The translations under genes and the position numbers were made by a program. Source: a virus. Taken from it: a stretch of DNA of 64,000 bases. Shown here piece after piece: positions 19,328-64,000 of the stretch. The stretch covers positions 1 through 64,000 of the IMG/VR virus record IMGVR_UViG_3300008255_000101. One strand, written 5' to 3'. Below the pieces are notes generated by a model. The model was not told the origin of the DNA. It saw nothing but the letters and a program-made list of their open reading frames with translations, and ran no database searches. Within the stretch, counting starts at the first letter, position 1. Each line of letters starts with the position of its first letter.

Positions 19328-19341
19328 GATTAGAAGATTAT
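19328..19341 (-). promoter_or_regulatory. Candidate late promoter motif ATAATCTTCTAATC (copy 1), followed by a 10-bp hairpin (19299-19325)
   Basis: One of five intergenic copies. Confidence 0.6.
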
Positions 19342-31533: not shown

Positions 31534-31547
31534 GATTAGGAGATTAT
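31534..31547 (-). promoter_or_regulatory. Candidate late promoter motif ATAATCTCCTAATC (copy 2), followed by a hairpin (31508-31532)
   Basis: One of five intergenic copies. Confidence 0.6.
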
Positions 31548-55025: not shown

Positions 55026-57857
55026 TTACAGTGTGCTTCTCAGGTAGTGAGTTACAGTGATCCAGTTCAATCCGAAAATCGGACGGTAGTACACGACTAC
55101 ATTGATGATAGTGGGGTCGGCATCGTCAACCACAGCCTTGATACCTTGGAAAGCCCCAATCAGATTGAGGAGTTTCAAGGAGCTGAAGTAGCTGTTCAGG
55201 CTCTTTTCGATGTCGTTGGTGAGACCATTGATCATCTTCTTACCGATGAACACGTCACAAGTCCTACGGACACCCTGCTGCACGAAGTGCTTAACAGAGA
55301 TGATACGAGGGTCACGAGTCAAAGGAGAGGACAGATCAGTGGTCAGTGCCATCATAACTTTGATGACGCCGAATTTGTTTTCCAGCACGGTGATACCAGC
55401 CTGGGCAACCTGGGAAGCGTTGGCCAAGGTCATGGCTCTTGCCAGACGGAGGATACCCACCAAATCGATGTTGGTCAGAGGGGTAGCCACGTCACGAGAC
55501 GGGGATACATCCGCACCAGCCATGGCACAAGCGATGTACTCCCCACCGACCTGGATGTCCTGGTCATTACCGTTTTCATCAGGAACGGTAATAACCGCTC
55601 CGTCAGGGTAGATGGCTGTGAGGAGTTCAGTACGAAGAGCCTTGGCGTAACCAATGGCTGCTTCAGGTGTGGTACCCAAGGCAAAGCCAAAGTAGGAAGT
55701 CCTTTCGTTCTTGAAGCGGATGCTGGTCTGCTGAGCGTTGGAGCTCTTCAGGTGGTTGATCACCTGTTGATTGGAGGTAACCACCTGAAGGATGCAGGGG
55801 CGAGTGCTGTTGGAAAGGGGTTCGTCGAATTCGTCGATGGCGGCGATGTAACTGTTTACAGAAGCATCGTTGCTGTCAGGAGCCTTCTGCACCTGCTTAA
55901 GAGCCAGGGCTTGAGCACCATTCTTGAAAGCCAAGTCGGCAGCGATAACGATAGGGTTGTTCTGGGCCAAAGGACCGAACAGACGAGTCACTTCAGGGAA
56001 GGTTGTGACATACTTGGTAGTAAAGTCCACCTTCACCTTGTCGAAAGTCACGTAGTACACGTCACCCACGCCAGGTTCTTCGTCGTAGTTCATATTGTAG
56101 GTTTTGAGCAAAGCGGTGTCAGAAACAGCCACGCCCAAAGTCGTTTCCACATTGAAGCGAAGGTTAGGGATACCCAGCTCGTAGTTCACGCCTACGGTGA
56201 AATCCTTGGTCACGTTGAAGATCAAGGTTCCGGCAGTAGCGGATTCCAGAGCGAAGGTGAATCCAGTGATGGTGTCCACATAAGTCTGACCCACGGTACC
56301 AGTGTTGATGGAACCAGATCCAGTGCCGGTGGCGACGTTGGAGGTAACCACAAAATCACCACCGGCATCCACGGTCACGGTAACGATTTCATTACCGCGA
56401 GAGCGCGAAGGAGCAATATATGCGTTGCTGGCAGAACCGGCAGCGTCATCCCAACTGGTAGTTCCTGAGTCCAGGAAGGTAGCAGTGGATGTGCTGGCAC
56501 CATCCAAGCTGACCTGGTACACGTTTCCGTTGGTAGCTCCGCGAACAGTGTACTTACCTACTCCGGCGGCACCAGCCACGGAGTTGGTTACTGTCCAGGT
56601 GTCATCTTTGTACATGTTCACGTAGGAGTCCACGAAAACATATTCTCCGACAGCAGGAGCCGTTTGCAGAGTGATGGTCTTACCGTCCAACTTGGTGATG
56701 ACCGCTTCTACAGCGGTAGCCAAGGTGGTGCCCACATAGGCCGTAAGGTCGTCGTAAGTTTCGGGGGTGCCATTTCCGATATCAGAAATGGGGTTACCCA
56801 TTCCGTCACCTTTAACAGGTACCCATGGCAGCGTGAAGGACTTTGTGGTGCCGTTACCGGTCCCCACGGAAGCCTTGTAGTAGCGCCAGTCCACCATGAC
56901 AGCGGAAATCTGGTTAGCTCCGAATTCAGTGGAACCCACAGTGGTGTCACCGGCTTCGACGGAAGCCGAGTTACCCCAATGGATTTCGTTACCGTTAGCC
57001 AATACGTAGTCTCTTCCGTTCAGGAAGTCTGTGCGGCCGGCGTCGTAACCTGCACGAACGATGCTACTCACCAAAGCGGCTGGCAAGATATCGTACGTGT
57101 TTTGGTAATCGTTGGAGAAATAGCTTACGAGAATTTCAGCTCCAGCGGTAGGGGCTGACACGAGAGTGAACACACCAGTGCTTCCACTGATGGACTCAAC
57201 AGATGCTTCCACACCGTCAACCATTACGAGAAGGACGGGTACGGTGATGATGCTTCCGTTGGACTCGGTAGAGGCGCTTGCGCCAATGTCAGAGTTAGTA
57301 GCGCTTGCGCCACCGTTATCACCCTTGACGATGCGAGCGGCCTTCACCTTGAACTGGCGAGTAGTTCCGTCCGCCTGTACAGTAAGGTCTTCGGCTTCGT
57401 TGTAGGAGTCGCGGCGCTTGAAGTAGTAGTTCAATACTACCAGGTCGCCTTCCTGAGGGGGGTTAACCAGAGTGATCAAGCCGTTAACAGCGTCAATCCT
57501 TTGGACCGGTGAGTTCTCACCGTTAACCTGAACGATTACCTGGCTAGGCTCGGTAGCAAAAGTACCCTGTCCATCGCCTTTGACGAGAGGGTAGTGCTTG
57601 GCGCCGACTTGCACATTAACGCCATCAAACACATTACCTCTACCGTTGGAGGCAGCGAGTTCACCCATGATCAGATTGTCAGCGGTGGAGGAAGATCCTC
57701 GAATCATTTCGAATGATTCAACTCTTTCCTCTTCCTGACCTACACCAATAATAGCTGGGTAACGCAGACTGCCTGCAGCTGTAGGAGTGGGTGATTCCAC
57801 GAGGGTCCTAGTGTAGGTCCCGGGGAACACAAATTGTTCTAGTGGTCCTATGGCCAT
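55026..57857 (-). CDS. Contractile tail sheath protein with inserted beta domains
   Basis: N-terminal FPGTYTRT, AFKNGAQ, C-terminal DPTIINVVVYYRPIFGLNWI; 943 aa. Confidence 0.9.
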   Translation of the reverse strand: MAIGPLEQFVFPGTYTRTLVESPTPTAAGSLRYPAIIGVGQEEERVESFEMIRGSSSTADNLIMGELAASNGRGNVFDGVNVQVGAKHYPLVKGDGQGTFATEPSQVIVQVNGENSPVQRIDAVNGLITLVNPPQEGDLVVLNYYFKRRDSYNEAEDLTVQADGTTRQFKVKAARIVKGDNGGASATNSDIGASASTESNGSIITVPVLLVMVDGVEASVESISGSTGVFTLVSAPTAGAEILVSYFSNDYQNTYDILPAALVSSIVRAGYDAGRTDFLNGRDYVLANGNEIHWGNSASVEAGDTTVGSTEFGANQISAVMVDWRYYKASVGTGNGTTKSFTLPWVPVKGDGMGNPISDIGNGTPETYDDLTAYVGTTLATAVEAVITKLDGKTITLQTAPAVGEYVFVDSYVNMYKDDTWTVTNSVAGAAGVGKYTVRGATNGNVYQVSLDGASTSTATFLDSGTTSWDDAAGSASNAYIAPSRSRGNEIVTVTVDAGGDFVVTSNVATGTGSGSINTGTVGQTYVDTITGFTFALESATAGTLIFNVTKDFTVGVNYELGIPNLRFNVETTLGVAVSDTALLKTYNMNYDEEPGVGDVYYVTFDKVKVDFTTKYVTTFPEVTRLFGPLAQNNPIVIAADLAFKNGAQALALKQVQKAPDSNDASVNSYIAAIDEFDEPLSNSTRPCILQVVTSNQQVINHLKSSNAQQTSIRFKNERTSYFGFALGTTPEAAIGYAKALRTELLTAIYPDGAVITVPDENGNDQDIQVGGEYIACAMAGADVSPSRDVATPLTNIDLVGILRLARAMTLANASQVAQAGITVLENKFGVIKVMMALTTDLSSPLTRDPRIISVKHFVQQGVRRTCDVFIGKKMINGLTNDIEKSLNSYFSSLKLLNLIGAFQGIKAVVDDADPTIINVVVYYRPIFGLNWITVTHYLRSTL

Positions 57858-57959: not shown

Positions 57960-57973
57960 GATTAAAAGATTAT
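57960..57973 (-). promoter_or_regulatory. Candidate late promoter motif ATAATCTTTTAATC (copy 3), upstream of the sheath
   Basis: One of five intergenic copies. Confidence 0.6.
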
Positions 57974-57983
57974 AGGGTTCTGA

Positions 57984-58463
57984 CTAAATCTTTACTTCTC
58001 GGAAACCAGTCTTATCCCAAGCTTTAGGATCTCGTCCTAGGGCTCTTTGGCTATCCTGATGACCAGTCACAGCTTCTGAGTATATCTCAGATCTTTTTCT
58101 GCGGTTGGCATCACCCAGCATAGCCTCTGGATTGAACTTCTCTCCGGGTTTCACAGCGACGGTAACAATCTTGGCGCCTTCTGTTTCTTCGGCCTTCGCG
58201 ATCTTCTCAGCCGTTTTCTTCTCGAAAGCTTGCCACTTCTTATCAGCGTCTTCACCTACTACCCTGTCGATCTCTTTCTTCGTGTGGGGACTCTTTGTTT
58301 TCAAATCCAGTGGGGTATTTACGGAAAATCCCGAAAATCCGTTACGTACGGCCTTTCCAGAACAAAGGGGGCACCCCTGGTCATCCCTTTCGTTCATCGC
58401 AACCATTCTTTCGAAATTGTGGTTGCACTTAGTGCCGGAGCACTTGTATTGGTATAATGGCAT
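57984..58463 (-). CDS. FmdB-family zinc-ribbon protein
   Basis: MPLYQYKC...C.H.FE.......CPLCSG...R..S.F signature. Confidence 0.85.
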   Translation of the reverse strand: MPLYQYKCSGTKCNHNFERMVAMNERDDQGCPLCSGKAVRNGFSGFSVNTPLDLKTKSPHTKKEIDRVVGEDADKKWQAFEKKTAEKIAKAEETEGAKIVTVAVKPGEKFNPEAMLGDANRRKRSEIYSEAVTGHQDSQRALGRDPKAWDKTGFREVKI

Positions 58464-58478: not shown

Positions 58479-59918
58479 CTAGTAGAATCTTGGATATGCT
58501 GTTTTTGGGTAGATAACCTGGAAGGGCTTATTGTCTACCCACATCTCTTCTTCGAACCACACCGATGGATTGACAGCAGTCACGCTATCCTTGACGTCCG
58601 TTGGAACCACTCGTCCCTCTGACACCTTAGCACGGTACTTAGCCAGCTTCAGTATGTAAGGAACGAATTTCTTCCACTCGGTCATTATTTCCATGGATAT
58701 GGTGTTTTGGAAGTACACGGCCTGGGTGGCATCGTCGTAGGATTCTTCCATCTCGCCTGTGGCATCACAAGCCTCGATGGTTATGCCTTCCCAGCGCAGG
58801 GGTTCCTTGCGGTTTCCCCAAATGTCAGAAATCAAATGGTCAGTCAATTCTTCGGTAGACATTGGGTCCCGAGTAAAAACCTTCCATTCTAAATTCATTA
58901 TGTAGTGGCCGCCATACACTTTGGCCACCTGCTCCCTCTGGGGATTAAGAACCACTACCTGCTTGTCCCCTGCCTGCTTACGGCTACCCACAGAAAGCAC
59001 TACACCTTTGATGGCGCTGTCTATGTACTGGTACTCATCCTTTACCGGGAAAGGACCTCTGTCCTCACCTCTCCATCTATAGGATGCGTAAACAGTGGTG
59101 CCCGTCTGCAGGGGGCGTAGGAAAGTGACCAAACCGGTTTCATCCACGTCGTAGTCGACGCCTCTGTCCAGGTAGATCAAAGTGGAGTTGAAGTTTTTCT
59201 TGGTGGTTAGGTTGAGGACGTAATCCAAGAGTACGGGGCTATTAGTTAGCTGTGCGTTAACTTCCACACCAGTTGTCTTTGCTATCAAAACTTCATTGAA
59301 CTCCGAGTACATCGGGGTTATCATAAAGTTGTCGTTCGCATCAAATTCTATGAAGTAGTAACCGGGTTTATCCACATCCACGTAGTAATAGGAGACTTCA
59401 ATCTTATCAGTGGAGGAAGCTGAGTATGGTAAACGGATCTGTCCACTCGCGGCATCCACTCCGGCGGCATCCAGGGGAACACCGTTTACATACAACTTTA
59501 CCTGTCCAAAGCTGGTAGCAGGCATCGTGTTTTGATTACCGGCTGCGATGGGAGCGTTAGCCACAGTCACCGTTCGCTGAGTCAAAGGATCCAGAGTGCT
59601 GGACACATCTTCTTTCTCGACGTAAGGTGTCAGATTATAGGCGTCTTCCCACACCCACTCGATGGTGGAACCCGGATAGTTTCCTACCCTGGTCAAAGCT
59701 ACCAGGGACCACAGGTCCCCTATGTAATCGTCGGGGCTTAGGTTTATGCGGGAAGAGGACACGCTCTGCAGGACTACTCCTGTCTGAGGTCTCTCCTTAC
59801 CCATATGAAGTCTGTTGTAGGCTTTCGTCCCGTGGGCATACGTAGGATGGCGCTGAATCGATAGATTCATCTCCTCAAACATCCTGTGCTTTATGGCACT
59901 GTATAGCTTATTTTCCAT
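58479..59918 (-). CDS. Tail completion/terminator-like protein with two inserted beta-sandwich modules
   Basis: Position upstream of the sheath; ERPQ.GVV N-terminus and F.RDP...EEL.D C-terminal half; inserts share the G.I.F..P module. Confidence 0.5.
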   Translation of the reverse strand: MENKLYSAIKHRMFEEMNLSIQRHPTYAHGTKAYNRLHMGKERPQTGVVLQSVSSSRINLSPDDYIGDLWSLVALTRVGNYPGSTIEWVWEDAYNLTPYVEKEDVSSTLDPLTQRTVTVANAPIAAGNQNTMPATSFGQVKLYVNGVPLDAAGVDAASGQIRLPYSASSTDKIEVSYYYVDVDKPGYYFIEFDANDNFMITPMYSEFNEVLIAKTTGVEVNAQLTNSPVLLDYVLNLTTKKNFNSTLIYLDRGVDYDVDETGLVTFLRPLQTGTTVYASYRWRGEDRGPFPVKDEYQYIDSAIKGVVLSVGSRKQAGDKQVVVLNPQREQVAKVYGGHYIMNLEWKVFTRDPMSTEELTDHLISDIWGNRKEPLRWEGITIEACDATGEMEESYDDATQAVYFQNTISMEIMTEWKKFVPYILKLAKYRAKVSEGRVVPTDVKDSVTAVNPSVWFEEEMWVDNKPFQVIYPKTAYPRFY

Positions 59919-59944
59919 GGGCCCTACTTTAAAGGGGTGCGAGC

Positions 59945-59958
59945 GATTAGAATATTAT
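59945..59958 (-). promoter_or_regulatory. Candidate late promoter motif ATAATATTCTAATC (copy 4)
   Basis: One of five intergenic copies. Confidence 0.6.
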
Positions 59959-60002
59959 GGGGTTTTCAGAGGGTGACTCAAATAATTTGTGGTGTTTTAA
60001 TA

Positions 60003-60036
60003 AAGTACCCCACCTCTTTTAGGAAGTGGGGTACTT
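60003..60036 (-). terminator. Intrinsic terminator-like hairpin after the actin gene
   Basis: AAGTACCCCAC / GTGGGGTACTT stem, followed by TATT on the minus strand. Confidence 0.7.
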
Positions 60037-60055
60037 AAAGTTTAGACCGGTTGGA

Positions 60056-61069
60056 TTACTCCGAGAAATTGATTGCCGCGATGAGCAGTCCCTTGGCAAC
60101 GTCGTTCAAAGGATCGTTGGCCAAGCGTATCTCCGAAATAGGGATGGGGAAGTCAGTGACCTTGTCGAACTCGGCTTGGAACAATTCCAAAAAGTTCTTA
60201 GCCTTAGCAGTACCGCCAGAAAGAACCCATGGTAGGGGCTCATCCACTTGTACGGCACTTTCCGTTTTACGGAACTCCCTCTTGATGTTATCCACCACAT
60301 ACTTGATGAGATTCTTGTAATAGACGATAATGGCTTCCCGCTCACGTAAATGCTTGGGATCTCCGTCGGTGGGGTCCAAAAGGTTCACGCCGCGTTCCTT
60401 AATGGCCATGATCTGCGAAGCAGTCATGCCCACAGCCCTGGCTGCATTTTCATCGATCCAGTCCCCCGACCGAGCCACAGAAAACTTCATACCTTCCATG
60501 GTCTGGTAAACCAAGGCCGAGTTCACCATGCCTGCTCCGAAGCTTGTGGCCAAAGCGGTAAAGGCCTCATCGGAACAGTTAGAGAATACCAGAGAGGTGG
60601 CCTCATTCATGGGTTGTGCGGTGTACCCGATCTGTTCGAGGATTTTCTTAAAAATTGCCTCATGGTAGGCTACATCGCCTTCCGCGTCCACGGGAGCCGC
60701 TGGGATGGAGTAGAAGCATACTTCCCCCTTCTGCGCGGGATCCCCCACCACTTCCTTAAGAAGGATGTACAGGATATTCTCAGCTTCCCTCTCGCCTGCG
60801 GAAATGACTCCCTTAGATAGGGGACGGCGTGCTTCGCGCTTCATCATGTTGGCGATCTTCAGAGCGGGGTCGCCCACGATGTAGAGTGTATCGCCCTTCT
60901 CGATGAAACTCACCTTGCTCATTTTGAGCATATTCTTAGTAGCGGGTTCGTTGTCCATGTTAAGAAAAGCGTCCCGGACAGATGTGATGTTCACGTCTGC
61001 CATGTCCGTGCTATCCGTTGTGGTAGCTCCCACAAGGAAACAGGTTCCGATGTCTAGCCCTTTTGCCAT
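60056..61069 (-). CDS. Actin-family ATPase, volactin-like
   Basis: Phosphate-1 GLDIGT, RRPL..GVI, connect-1 PMNEA, phosphate-2 SFGAGMVN, GDWID, adenosine VLSGGTA, connect-2 DPLNDVAKG. Confidence 0.88.
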   Translation of the reverse strand: MAKGLDIGTCFLVGATTTDSTDMADVNITSVRDAFLNMDNEPATKNMLKMSKVSFIEKGDTLYIVGDPALKIANMMKREARRPLSKGVISAGEREAENILYILLKEVVGDPAQKGEVCFYSIPAAPVDAEGDVAYHEAIFKKILEQIGYTAQPMNEATSLVFSNCSDEAFTALATSFGAGMVNSALVYQTMEGMKFSVARSGDWIDENAARAVGMTASQIMAIKERGVNLLDPTDGDPKHLREREAIIVYYKNLIKYVVDNIKREFRKTESAVQVDEPLPWVLSGGTAKAKNFLELFQAEFDKVTDFPIPISEIRLANDPLNDVAKGLLIAAINFSE

Positions 61070-61085
61070 AATGGCCTCCTATCTG

Positions 61086-61781
61086 CTATTTTTGATTGTT
61101 GTTCTTGTTAAGTTCTCGTAGTTTTGCCAAAGAAGAATTGACAGTTCCTCCCTGACCGAGACTCTTAGTCTCAAGCTTCACCCTATTCGTCATGTCGTCC
61201 ACTTGGAAAGATGATGGAACGTAGACCTCTTCACCCACCGTACTCCGGCTAGACTTGGTCTCTACAGACCGTACACCTGCCCCTGAAACGGTTATACCCC
61301 TGACGGACTCTTCAACGCGATCCAGTTGTTCGACCACCGATGAGGAGATGTCATTCTTATTTTTGAGAGCCTCCTGGATACCAGCTACCTGTACAGCCAG
61401 GGACTGCAGGGCAGTTTCTACACCTGTACCGGTTGCGGGAGTGGCTGCAGGGGGCATTACTTCTTGACCACTCTTTTGCTGTATAACAGCAACCTTATCA
61501 CTGAGCTCTCTAATTACTCCCAGGATTGCGTCCATCTTCCCATCATCTACGGGGACCGCTGGTTGCACCACTTCTGGATTCTGTACGGGGGCCTTAAACC
61601 CAGGATAACTCTCGACCTTGTGGTCCATCACAAAAAGCTTTCCAGCTTCTATGGCCTTTTTGAGTTCGGGGGAGGAATTATATTGGTTATCCGAAAAAAT
61701 CTTTTCTTGACCATAGTAGACCCTGTCTGCTATGTCCCGTAATTCCACAGTTCGGAAATCTATTCCTCTTACCTTTATCAT
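61086..61781 (-). CDS. Hypothetical coiled-coil protein, candidate actin adaptor
   Basis: Small N-terminal domain, Pro-rich linker, heptad coiled coil, C-terminal amphipathic SSLAKLREL; directly upstream of actin. Confidence 0.55.
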   Translation of the reverse strand: MIKVRGIDFRTVELRDIADRVYYGQEKIFSDNQYNSSPELKKAIEAGKLFVMDHKVESYPGFKAPVQNPEVVQPAVPVDDGKMDAILGVIRELSDKVAVIQQKSGQEVMPPAATPATGTGVETALQSLAVQVAGIQEALKNKNDISSSVVEQLDRVEESVRGITVSGAGVRSVETKSSRSTVGEEVYVPSSFQVDDMTNRVKLETKSLGQGGTVNSSLAKLRELNKNNNQK

Positions 61782-61830
61782 TTTTTATAGTAAGCCCGCC
61801 TTAGGCCGCGGGCATAGCCTTTCGGATGGA

Positions 61831-62874
61831 TTAGCCCAAGTAGGCAGCGAGCTTTTCTTGGTTGATGCGCGCAGACTTGCTGGCTGGTGCCGGCGTAGCC
61901 TGTGCCACATCGCGGGGTGCCCCTTGGTTACTGAGTTCATCAGCACCAGGAACGTGTATTTTGGAGGAAGTACCGTCTTCGTTCTGAACCGTTTGGTCAT
62001 AAGAAGGAAGCTGGTGGACAGGAGCCGAAGCCATTTCGTTCACCACTTCGATAGCCTGGGTAGCGCCTGGGAGATATTTTTCCAGCATGGAAACATTCTT
62101 ACCCTGGCCTGCAAAAGAAGCACCGATAGTGAGAAGAAGTGCGGCCAAAGCTGCCTTAACAGGAGCACCTGCCAAATGAGAGGCGTCGGGCTCAGGCATC
62201 AGCATGGAGACCATAGCCTGCAAGTCGTTGTGCTTAGCATCACCGTACTTGGTCTTGAAATTGCGTAGGTTGGTTTCCATGTCCGCAGGAGACAAATTGG
62301 TTTCGAAGATGAATTCCAAATCGTGAGGATGGACATCCTTAAGGATGGCTTGGGCTTGTTCCAAGTCACGTGCGCGAACAGCATGCTCGTCCAGTACCTT
62401 CACAGCCCGGAGTGCTTTCTGCTTGGCGTCTTCACCCACGTCCACTTTACCGGTGGCGATGTTGGAAACATTCTTAAGTCCGTTCATGACCTTGTCTAGG
62501 ATACCCGCCTGTGCCTCCATGGCAGCTTGAGCCTCCATGGCACCTTCGTCTTCCTTGGAGCCTTCTTCGGAAGCCTCGGCAACGTCCACGTAGAACTTTT
62601 CGCTGTCGGGAGTGGCTACGTAGGACATGGAGCTCTGCTTACAGGAAGCACACTTAACCTTGTCATTGACAGTCACAAGCGCAGCTTCGACGTTGAATGT
62701 CCCACCCTCAGAGGCCACTTTGCTGGCATGGCTGTGGATGGACGCATTGATTTCGCTCAACGAGGCAGTGTGCCCACAGCCGCCGCATGCAAAAATGGTC
62801 TTTTCGGCAGCTTCTTTCTCCAAGTCTTCAGCGAGCTTGATGAGGTGTTCGGCGGCAGTGATGATTCGTGGCAT
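61831..62874 (-). CDS. Zn-ribbon-containing Ala-rich protein (possibly head-internal)
   Basis: CGGCGH...CASC Zn pair; low-complexity linkers. Confidence 0.55.
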   Translation of the reverse strand: MPRIITAAEHLIKLAEDLEKEAAEKTIFACGGCGHTASLSEINASIHSHASKVASEGGTFNVEAALVTVNDKVKCASCKQSSMSYVATPDSEKFYVDVAEASEEGSKEDEGAMEAQAAMEAQAGILDKVMNGLKNVSNIATGKVDVGEDAKQKALRAVKVLDEHAVRARDLEQAQAILKDVHPHDLEFIFETNLSPADMETNLRNFKTKYGDAKHNDLQAMVSMLMPEPDASHLAGAPVKAALAALLLTIGASFAGQGKNVSMLEKYLPGATQAIEVVNEMASAPVHQLPSYDQTVQNEDGTSSKIHVPGADELSNQGAPRDVAQATPAPASKSARINQEKLAAYLG

Positions 62875-62969
62875 ACCTTTTTCTCCTGTTCCAGTACGTT
62901 AGGTCTAGCAACATAACCGTACGAGGAAAACAAAAACCTGTACGGCGGGTTTTGAAATAAGAGCACAAG

Positions 62970-62983
62970 GATTAGAAGATTAT
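62970..62983 (-). promoter_or_regulatory. Candidate late promoter motif ATAATCTTCTAATC (copy 5), upstream of the actin operon
   Basis: One of five intergenic copies. Confidence 0.6.
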
Positions 62984-62989
62984 CCGTCC

Positions 62990-64000
62990 CTACGCCGTAA
63001 TATTCTCAAAGGTCACTGTGCGGCCTATTGGTACGGTCCCCGGGATGCTCTCTGGCTTGATAGGTAATTGGGGACTTGCGTCCGAAGGCCTATCCTCTCT
63101 GTAGGCGTTCCACCCTGCGGGCACATACAATTGGCCACCATTGATGGGGACAGAATACACGGGGTCCGTCTGGTCTATCTGGGACAAGCTAAAGTGCTGC
63201 TGATAGGTGGCGCCGCGAGATCCCTGTGGGTTGGGCCTCACTACATAGAATCGATCGTTGTTGGATCGAACTATGACGTCCCTGTCGTTCAGAAGGGGCT
63301 CGGGCCCAGTCCAGGTATTCCAATCGTATGTGATATGGAGACCTGCGTCCATCAAATTTACGGCTTTCTCCGTCTCAGGGGGAGCGATTATTATGTCAAA
63401 AGGTCCTTCGTAACCTCCCACATACCCCGTGCCGTAGCAGATCATGCAACTCCGGTCTGTACCCACGCCCTTCGAGCGTCCGTAAACATCGTTGTAGCAA
63501 CTGCATCTTTGGCCGTTCCATTTCCTTAGGAAAAGTTTGACCCTGTCCCCTGTCTGCTCCAAAAGCCAGTGATTCCTGCGAATGGCCTCTGCCCAGATCC
63601 AATCGATCTTCTCCATGTCGTATAGGCTTATGGCTTCGCACTCACTCAGGGGTGTCTCAATGTCTTCGTTCTTATCAAAATCATGAGCTACCGTTGTTAC
63701 CTTGTAGTAGATCTTGCGGCTCATATCGTTTGCAATTAGACCGTTCAGGTAGTAGTAGGTCACTCTTATGCCCCCAGAAAGCAAATCGGGTAGGACAGGT
63801 TTCTTATAGGAGTTAGTGACTGGGTCGTAGGTCCTATTCGTGTTCAGGAATATTAAACCCTCGTCCGCATATATTTTCCAAGGTATCACAGGGACATAAC
63901 CCATACCATCACCGGCATCCACTTCCACCAAAACATCCTGTACGGTTGTGGCCTTTAGGTCATTACTACCAGGATGGATCACCTTCTTGTGAGATGTGTG
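62990..64000 (-). CDS. Neck/head-tail joining protein with CxC...CxxCxGTG Zn site (5'-partial)
   Basis: Frame stays open to the window edge; LLEQTGDRVKLF.R...RCSC...CMICYGTGYVGGY pattern recalled from large-myovirus neck proteins. Confidence 0.6.
   Translation of the reverse strand, partial: HTSHKKVIHPGSNDLKATTVQDVLVEVDAGDGMGYVPVIPWKIYADEGLIFLNTNRTYDPVTNSYKKPVLPDLLSGGIRVTYYYLNGLIANDMSRKIYYKVTTVAHDFDKNEDIETPLSECEAISLYDMEKIDWIWAEAIRRNHWLLEQTGDRVKLFLRKWNGQRCSCYNDVYGRSKGVGTDRSCMICYGTGYVGGYEGPFDIIIAPPETEKAVNLMDAGLHITYDWNTWTGPEPLLNDRDVIVRSNNDRFYVVRPNPQGSRGATYQQHFSLSQIDQTDPVYSVPINGGQLYVPAGWNAYREDRPSDASPQLPIKPESIPGTVPIGRTVTFENITA

Follow-up and report, generated by a model that had tools for sequence, protein, structure and literature searches.

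We examined a 64,000-nucleotide (nt) stretch of DNA from an uncultured virus, hereafter the window, which is the first 64 kb of the 150,182-bp IMG/VR record IMGVR_UViG_3300008255_000101, and found that a three-gene unit on its minus strand (positions 60003–62983) encodes a volactin-family actin with intact predicted catalytic motifs. In a large clade of uncultured phages whose near-complete members measure 0.4–0.5 Mb, the unit belongs to the core of the neck/tail gene block and is passed on vertically. CheckV rates the record as 32% complete, corresponding to a genome of roughly 470 kb, and near-complete relatives span 417–529 kb. Hundreds of related huge phages have an actin and adaptor pair at this location, and it is therefore probable that they assemble actin filaments of their own in late infection.

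The actin is a 337-residue protein encoded by the third gene of the unit (60056–61069, minus strand). It matches the Pfam family Volactin (PF25216) with an E-value of 4.1e-73 and 247.1 bits against a cut-off of 35, residues 1–332 aligning to positions 1–321 of the 321-position profile, and it was found again as Volactin in a profile search of the genome. Neither MreB_Mbl (PF06723) nor ParM/StbA matched it in Pfam at E ≤ 0.1, and ParM/StbA was likewise absent among its PDB profile matches at E ≤ 10. The initial annotation of this DNA, which was made from the letters alone, had preferred volactin to MreB and ParM and had read all of the nucleotide-binding motifs as present; the family assignment bears out the former, and each peptide that the annotation quoted was found in the translation. 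Across 43 aligned family members from phages, bacteria and archaea, the phosphate-1 motif (DIGT; D6, G8 and T9), the phosphate-2 motif (SFGAGM.N; S176, G178, G180 and N183) and the adenosine motif (GGT; G285 and G286) are invariant at these residues. A confident AlphaFold2 model of the protein shows the four-subdomain actin fold, with a predicted local distance difference test score (pLDDT) of 90.2 and a predicted template modelling score of 0.87. Superposed over residues 1–337, the model was closest to MamK (Z 28.1, root-mean-square deviation 3.1 over 301 residues, 19% identity), followed by BeeR (Z 27.6), MreB (about Z 26), eukaryotic actin (about Z 25) and Hsp70 (about Z 24.5). A profile search of PDB sequences also placed MamK first (E 1.2e-7), with BeeR at E 0.022 and MreB at 0.15. 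A profile was required for this comparison, as a single-sequence search of the PDB returned HisF matches alone, which we rejected as spurious.

Relatives of the actin are abundant in metagenomic data. A protein-collection search returned more than 1600 clusters with relatives at E ≤ 0.001, the best 120 of which are all 57–82% identical to the window actin and often lie on contigs of 100–460 kb, and 399 IMG/VR contigs encode a relative. Among 50,697 deposited phage genomes there were two matches only, both in metagenomic huge phages (LR745208, 485 kb, and LR756511, 595 kb). At about 105 loci compared by tblastn, on contigs of up to 529 kb, the gene order is essentially invariant: a 461-residue protein, (partner genes), the actin, a 479-residue protein, (a 159-residue zinc (Zn)-ribbon protein) and the tail sheath. 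When loci were seeded with the sheath gene, all 24 in which the upstream DNA extended to 3.9 kb or more contained the actin, and the six loci without it end too short. The initial annotation had proposed comparing the synteny of the three genes across phages; we found that the position of the unit in the block is kept in about 100 loci, and that the composition of the unit varies by subclade. The match in LR756511.1 (548783–549799, locus L012) is a very divergent volactin-like actin, with 31% identity and an unrelated context that holds neither the partner nor the tail synteny, and it may be a second, independent acquisition. Two near-complete relatives (L055 and L083; 467 and 529 kb) are classed as 'provirus' in IMG/VR, which is unexpected at such a size.

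Mobile elements have also targeted this gene. In the relative IMGVR_UViG_3300028837_003833 (L008:8378–10477; the same contig as L037), the actin is interrupted in frame by a class-1 intein of about 340 residues, with junctions ...ALASS/C...HN/CGAGM and a LAGLIDADG domain (E 5e-9); the insertion point falls precisely within the phosphate-2 motif. Elsewhere in the clade, free-standing homing-endonuclease-like genes sit beside the actin (L005:11190–12986, L007:1552–3021, L029:5878–6708 and L074:9109–9987). These are of two kinds, one combining a treble-clef DUF4379 with a DUF2726 nuclease and the other of the Vsr/DUF559 type. Inteins and homing endonucleases typically home into highly conserved, indispensable phage genes, and we therefore take the intein, together with the flanking homing-endonuclease genes, as a sign of the importance of the actin.

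The second gene of the unit, which ends 16 nt upstream of the actin, encodes a 231-residue coiled-coil protein (61086–61781, minus strand) that is our candidate for the adaptor. Iterative jackhmmer searches among the open reading frames (ORFs) between the 461-residue gene and the actin recovered its family in 94 of the 105 actin loci; a hidden Markov model (HMM) of its N-terminal domain (N-domain) adds two more, giving at least 96 of 105, and the remaining loci are mostly truncated. The window protein consists of the N-domain (residues 1–52; about 55 residues in the family), helices at 80–103 and 120–161, and a C-terminal helix at 214–230 that ends ..SSLAKLRELNK... Across the family, a variable helical linker is followed by a P-x-Y-I-P motif and then by a basic amphipathic C-terminal helix with the consensus ..V..A..ALR.LR... 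The N-domain is modelled by AlphaFold2 at a pLDDT of about 96 as four strands and two helices, and its fold matches are small uncharacterised phage proteins, such as a 51-residue Xanthomonas phage protein (TM-score 0.83); some of its BFVD fold matches carry the label 'LEM-like'. Pfam searches over 59 adaptor homologues returned weak coiled-coil families alone, and the phage members lack a conserved membrane anchor. We also ran VIA-align on the adaptor model and set the result aside, as it was swamped by generic coiled-coil matches.

The C-terminal helix recurs outside phages. In the cellular volactin loci that we compared (L133–L136 and L143–L150), the ORF directly upstream of the volactin gene carries a peptide resembling that of the phage adaptor at or near its C-terminal end, for example ..GGVSNSLNKLKSLKG.. 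and ..GVKGTLAKLRNLRKG.. in Planctomycetota and ..SGVDAQVAGLKGLKG.. and ..VDDQTQKLKELR.. in haloarchaea, compared with ..GGTVNSSLAKLRELNK.. and ..GDSVRNSLNKLKKLKN.. in phages. A motif HMM built from just the C-terminal 30 residues of the phage adaptors was searched against 1027 ORFs, comprising 900 raw ORFs from the cellular loci and the 127 proteins encoded by the phage of the window. Each of the ten best non-self matches (E 1.9e-6 to 0.13) was the ORF directly preceding a volactin gene, three of them haloarchaeal and seven from Planctomycetota, with the motif at or near the C-terminus. The initial annotation had cast the coiled-coil protein as the adaptor, and this recurrence in the upstream partners of cellular volactins agrees with that role. 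The bodies of the partners are mutually unrelated: those of haloarchaea are multi-pass membrane proteins, one of which is deposited as a 'permease' (MFP8956245.1; L135:480–1403), and those of Planctomycetota are long coiled coils. The N-domain HMM found the phage N-domain in phage partners only, not in cellular ones. This arrangement suggests that the shared peptide is an actin-binding element and the variable body a cargo or anchor module. Volactin filaments of Haloferax touch the membrane only by their tips (PMC10869688). Since the filaments are attached to the membrane by their tips and the haloarchaeal partner is membrane-anchored, the shared peptide probably binds filament ends, and the haloarchaeal upstream membrane protein is a candidate for the membrane anchor of the volactin filament tips.

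The unit has the appearance of a discrete transcription unit, as first proposed; its parts all lie on the minus strand, with a promoter-like motif at the start and a hairpin at the end. The motif ATAATCTTCTAAT (62971–62983, family ATAAYCTNNTAAT) stands 96 nt upstream of the first gene, which encodes a 347-residue Zn-ribbon protein (61831–62874), and is the likely start of transcription. At the other end, a repeat search and RNA folding identified an intrinsic-terminator-like hairpin (60003–60036) 20 nt past the actin stop codon, with 14-nt arms that are 93% complementary and a 6-nt loop. Its predicted folding energy is −26.7 kcal/mol (z −5.47), and none of 200 shuffled sequences folded as stably. 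Across the 150-kb record, ATAAYCTNNTAAT has 15 copies, all on the coding strand and 14 of them intergenic, when shuffled sequences lead one to expect 0.2. A 16-nt version of the motif allowing up to three mismatches gave 13 matches, 12 on the coding strand, with about one expected. One copy (57961–57973) lies 103 nt upstream of the sheath gene, and a weaker one, read from the sequence, precedes the 479-residue gene (59943–59958); further window copies are at 31535–31547 and 19329–19341, and ten more lie outside the window. In related phages the motif stands 60–120 nt upstream of the orthologue of the 347-residue Zn-ribbon gene in at least 25 loci, and it is also found ahead of the Zn-ribbon/sheath genes and the 479-residue gene, almost always on the gene strand. 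These features make ATAAYCTNNTAAT a candidate non-sigma70 promoter. Because the unit is bounded by the motif and the terminator, and because the motif also precedes the sheath gene, the actin unit is likely to be co-regulated with the tail genes, and its expression would then fall late in infection.

We next consider the genes around the unit. Nearly all genes are on the minus strand, and PHROGs and Pfam searches over about 35 neighbouring proteins gave almost no matches. Upstream lies the conserved 461-residue protein with Cys-rich motifs, which is syntenic in nearly all loci; its ORF occupies 62990–64000 and runs to 64375 past the window, and the protein has a weak PHROG match to 'virion structural protein' (E 1.7e-3). 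Downstream, the 479-residue protein (58479–59918), syntenic in all loci, resembles SP10_terminator and Phage_tail_terminator_9 clusters in the ESM Atlas (TM-score 0.57–0.75 by target), which we treat as a lead only. It is followed by the 159-residue Zn_ribbon_8 protein (57984–58463; PF09723, E 3.3e-10), whose position between the terminator-like gene and the sheath is conserved, and by the 943-residue tail sheath (55026–57857), for which a profile of five homologues matched the phi812 sheath in the PDB (5li2, E 7.5e-4); all four genes are on the minus strand. The predicted neighbours of the actin are thus those of a contractile tail, a sheath homologue and, as a lead only, a tail-terminator homologue. 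The initial annotation had located the unit between neck and tail completion genes. The tail side of that description holds through the sheath and the terminator-like lead; on the 'neck' side, the 461-residue gene gave only the weak PHROG match.

The 347-residue Zn-ribbon protein has an N-terminal helix and a CxxC...CxxC zinc ribbon (about 100 conserved residues), followed by an acidic linker that varies and a short C-terminal peptide that is conserved, and it has no family in Pfam or PHROG. By jackhmmer its family is present in 47 of the 105 actin loci, all in the subclade of the window, and the four Cys residues are conserved in 30 distinct homologues drawn from these loci. The window copy carries a long insertion and a transmembrane-like stretch at residues 234–256 that are found in none of the 47 relatives. 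We considered this hydrophobic stretch as a membrane anchor and rejected it, as it is unique to the window copy (0/47 relatives). In the second subclade of the clade (subclade 2), a family beginning 'MHPRQAS...' (27 loci), encoded in the gap ahead of the actin, has an N-terminus like that of the 347-residue protein without the cysteines, and the gap between adaptor and actin holds another small protein besides the ferritin-like gene discussed below.

To place the phage actins, we inferred a maximum-likelihood tree (IQ-TREE, LG+C20, quick search) of 93 sequences, including 62 phage representatives less than 80% identical to one another and three MreB sequences as outgroup; MamK, ParM and AlfA were not included. 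The 62 phage actins form one clade (Shimodaira–Hasegawa-like approximate likelihood ratio test (SH-aLRT) 99), sister to a Planctomycetota/Omnitrophota clade (84), followed by a Desulfobacterales protein and then by the haloarchaeal volactins (95). All of these form one group on a very long branch relative to the MreB outgroup, which is separated by 4.6 substitutions per site. The LR756511 protein and that of a contig of low guanine-cytosine content binned with Methanothrix have long branches and are unplaced in the tree. The initial match to haloarchaeal volactin was thus right as to the family and wrong as to the nearest relatives, which in the tree are from Planctomycetota/Omnitrophota. Against the Volactin profile, the phage actin scores 247 bits and those of haloarchaea about 450. 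The name of the Pfam family suggests an archaeal protein; the family is actually frequent in Planctomycetota, where 65 of 151 sampled genomes exceed the Pfam cut-off, often with 2–4 copies, compared with 24 of 151 in the phylum to which the haloarchaea belong. It is also present as a tandem pair in Omnitrophota (L120:5986–8550) and in one Desulfobacterales metagenome-assembled genome (MAG). Planctomycetota volactin genes sit among ordinary cellular genes, such as those for a response regulator, an acyltransferase and a peptidase. The phage actin is, by tree and profile, a new and divergent branch of a known family, and the data fit one ancient acquisition from a bacterial donor that cannot be named, after which the gene was inherited vertically.

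A search of 185,579 species-representative genomes gave 16 matches, six of which are contigs of this phage clade in unrelated MAGs labelled Altiarchaeales, KSB1, Actinomycetota, Legionellales, Betaproteobacteria and Lysinibacter. We rejected a cellular origin for these six GTDB matches (L117, L118, L119, L127, L128 and L131), as their contigs show full phage synteny; they are probably phage contamination of the bins.

What might such an actin do? We favour a role in the spatial organisation of virion assembly, in which filaments would position, transport or join heads and tails, and we put this a little short of an even chance. When the structural genes are expressed, the actin would polymerise with ATP into dynamic filaments, as haloarchaeal volactin does, and the basic amphipathic C-terminal helix of the adaptor would bind the actin, probably at filament ends. 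The phage-specific N-domain would bind a phage cargo, and since the position of the gene in the block is fixed, this cargo is most likely part of the assembling virion. The 347-residue Zn-ribbon protein, confined to one subclade, would have an accessory role. Cargo handling by MamK/MamJ or ParM/ParR would be a functional analogue, as would the phiKZ-like PhuZ spindle. Five relatives of 417–529 kb, three of them rated at least 98% complete, gave no match to a tubulin family, and the actin could therefore fill the role that tubulin has in phiKZ-like phages; if the present phages do use a polymer to organise the cell, it is the candidate. Several observations weigh against this assignment. Gene position in the structural block is circumstantial evidence for function, and no cultured phage among the 50,697 phage records has the actin. 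The E-values of the motif HMM are modest in absolute terms, so that the argument from the shared peptide rests on its exclusive placement. The best PDB match of the N-domain is the B. subtilis prophage protein YqbF at E 0.23, and we rejected the idea that the N-domain is always a domain of neck/tail modules, as its best BFVD matches, phage G gp158 and gp163, lie among non-structural genes. In subclade 2 the 347-residue Zn-ribbon gene was not detected; a conserved gene of about 170 residues is in its place (33 loci), and a ferritin/Dps-like gene (PF00210, E 4e-6; L072:9321–9854) lies directly upstream of the actin in 35 loci.

The filaments might serve the host cell's form rather than the virion's parts. 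Anchored by the adaptor, they would alter cell shape, size or division, giving room for large virions or a bigger burst without handling virion parts directly. Phages of 417–529 kb, the size of the near-complete relatives, are presumed to build very large particles. The nearest relatives of the actin are chromosomal Planctomycetota/Omnitrophota genes with partners of their own, and the sole studied family member acts in the cell-shape transition of Haloferax (PMC10869688). We nevertheless regard host remodelling as unlikely, as the N-domain of the adaptor is phage-specific and absent from cellular partners, the phage partners share no conserved membrane anchor, and in about 100 loci the unit keeps its place in the neck/tail block together with a sheath-type motif, whereas genes for host take-over tend to be early and variable.

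A role in positioning or segregating DNA, as for ParMRC, Alp7 and AlpC, seems to us quite improbable. Here the adaptor would bind phage DNA or a DNA-filled head or portal, and filaments would move or hold genomes. Its architecture of small N-domain, linker and C-terminal helix does resemble that of ParR, the 'LEM-like' label on some BFVD matches of the N-domain points in the same direction, and the phage actin AlpC supports viral DNA replication (PMC4446434). The N-domain, however, has no significant match to a DNA-binding fold, and the unit carries the structural-gene motif and is not near replication genes. The initial annotation had named a ParM-type actin next to a centromere as the contrary outcome; we found no ParM/StbA family signal and no iterated centromere-like repeats in or beside the unit. 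The region 59800–63200, which we considered for a centromere, holds only two-copy repeats at chance level, one coding repeat and the terminator hairpin. There is also a slim chance that the protein is a non-filamentous assembly ATPase or chaperone for the neck or tail, or an actin packaged in or attached to the particle. Its fixed place between the 461-residue protein and the tail-terminator-like gene would suit such a part, and the actin fold is shared with Hsp70 (about Z 24.5). Set against this, the family is filament-forming, the closest structures are the filament subunits MamK, BeeR and MreB, the actin has no substrate-binding domain, and the partner motif is common to cytoskeletal volactin systems.

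Comparison with known systems helps to define what is distinct about the organisation of virion assembly by an actin that we favour. Volactin itself (VolA, HVO_2015, of Haloferax volcanii) belongs to the same full-length Pfam family and shares the nucleotide motifs and an upstream partner with the helix motif, whereas the phage actins form their own clade within a virion morphogenesis block, and their partner has a soluble, phage-specific N-domain instead of a membrane body. MamK, the closest solved structure, and MamJ offer a likeness in concept, an actin filament with an adaptor that ties it to bulky cargo; identity to MamK is 19%, the context is phage tail/neck instead of a magnetosome island, and, as far as tested, the phage adaptor shows no family match and no relation to MamJ. 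BeeR (Verrucomicrobiota, PDB 8r2n) is a MamK-like actin of the Planctomycetota–Verrucomicrobiota–Chlamydiota (PVC) superphylum that forms a three-stranded tube and whose function is unknown. It is the second-best structural match, but its profile E-value is the 0.022 given above and its disordered N-terminal extension is absent in the phage actin. The ParMRC, Alp7AR and AlfAB operons are likewise small and pair an actin with an adaptor whose C-terminal helix is probably actin-binding, and the dynamics of volactin resemble those of ParM (PMC10869688). In the phage unit, by contrast, the adaptor gene precedes the actin, the surroundings are tail genes and not replication or partition genes, and both the ParM/StbA match and the centromere repeats are missing. 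AlpC, from the Corynebacterium glutamicum prophage CGP3, is also a phage actin-like protein with an adaptor (PMC4446434), but its role is in replicating and transporting viral DNA, and its prophage is small and temperate, whereas the phage volactin is of another actin family and in a structural-gene context. Finally, the PhuZ spindle is a cytoskeletal polymer of very large phages with a possible part in cell organisation and capsid delivery (PMC7950403); it has a tubulin fold instead of an actin fold, and it has been studied experimentally, whereas phage volactin is known from metagenomes alone.

Full-text literature searches gave no account of huge phages with an actin, volactin-type or other, in their structural module, and a survey of huge phages mentions tubulin as the one cytoskeletal protein. 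An actin with a modular adaptor as a core part of a tail/neck block is a new variant among phage cytoskeletal systems and not a categorically new one. The phage cytoskeletons known so far are the PhuZ tubulin of nucleus-forming jumbo phages and a few actin-like proteins that act in replicating or segregating DNA; the actin described here belongs to another family, one that has barely been studied, and in hundreds of uncultured huge phages it has a fixed place in the tail/neck block. Should it form filaments, both major cytoskeletal folds would have been taken up independently by large phages for organising infection. A more far-reaching proposal, which we hold tentatively and think rather doubtful as a whole, is that this clade of roughly 0.4–0.5-Mb phages has an actin-based transport or docking machine for virion parts, the counterpart in actin of the PhuZ tubulin spindle, with an adaptor peptide that binds filament ends and is common to archaeal, bacterial and phage volactin systems. 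Were this true, the shared peptide would also reveal which Haloferax protein binds volactin and anchors it to the membrane.

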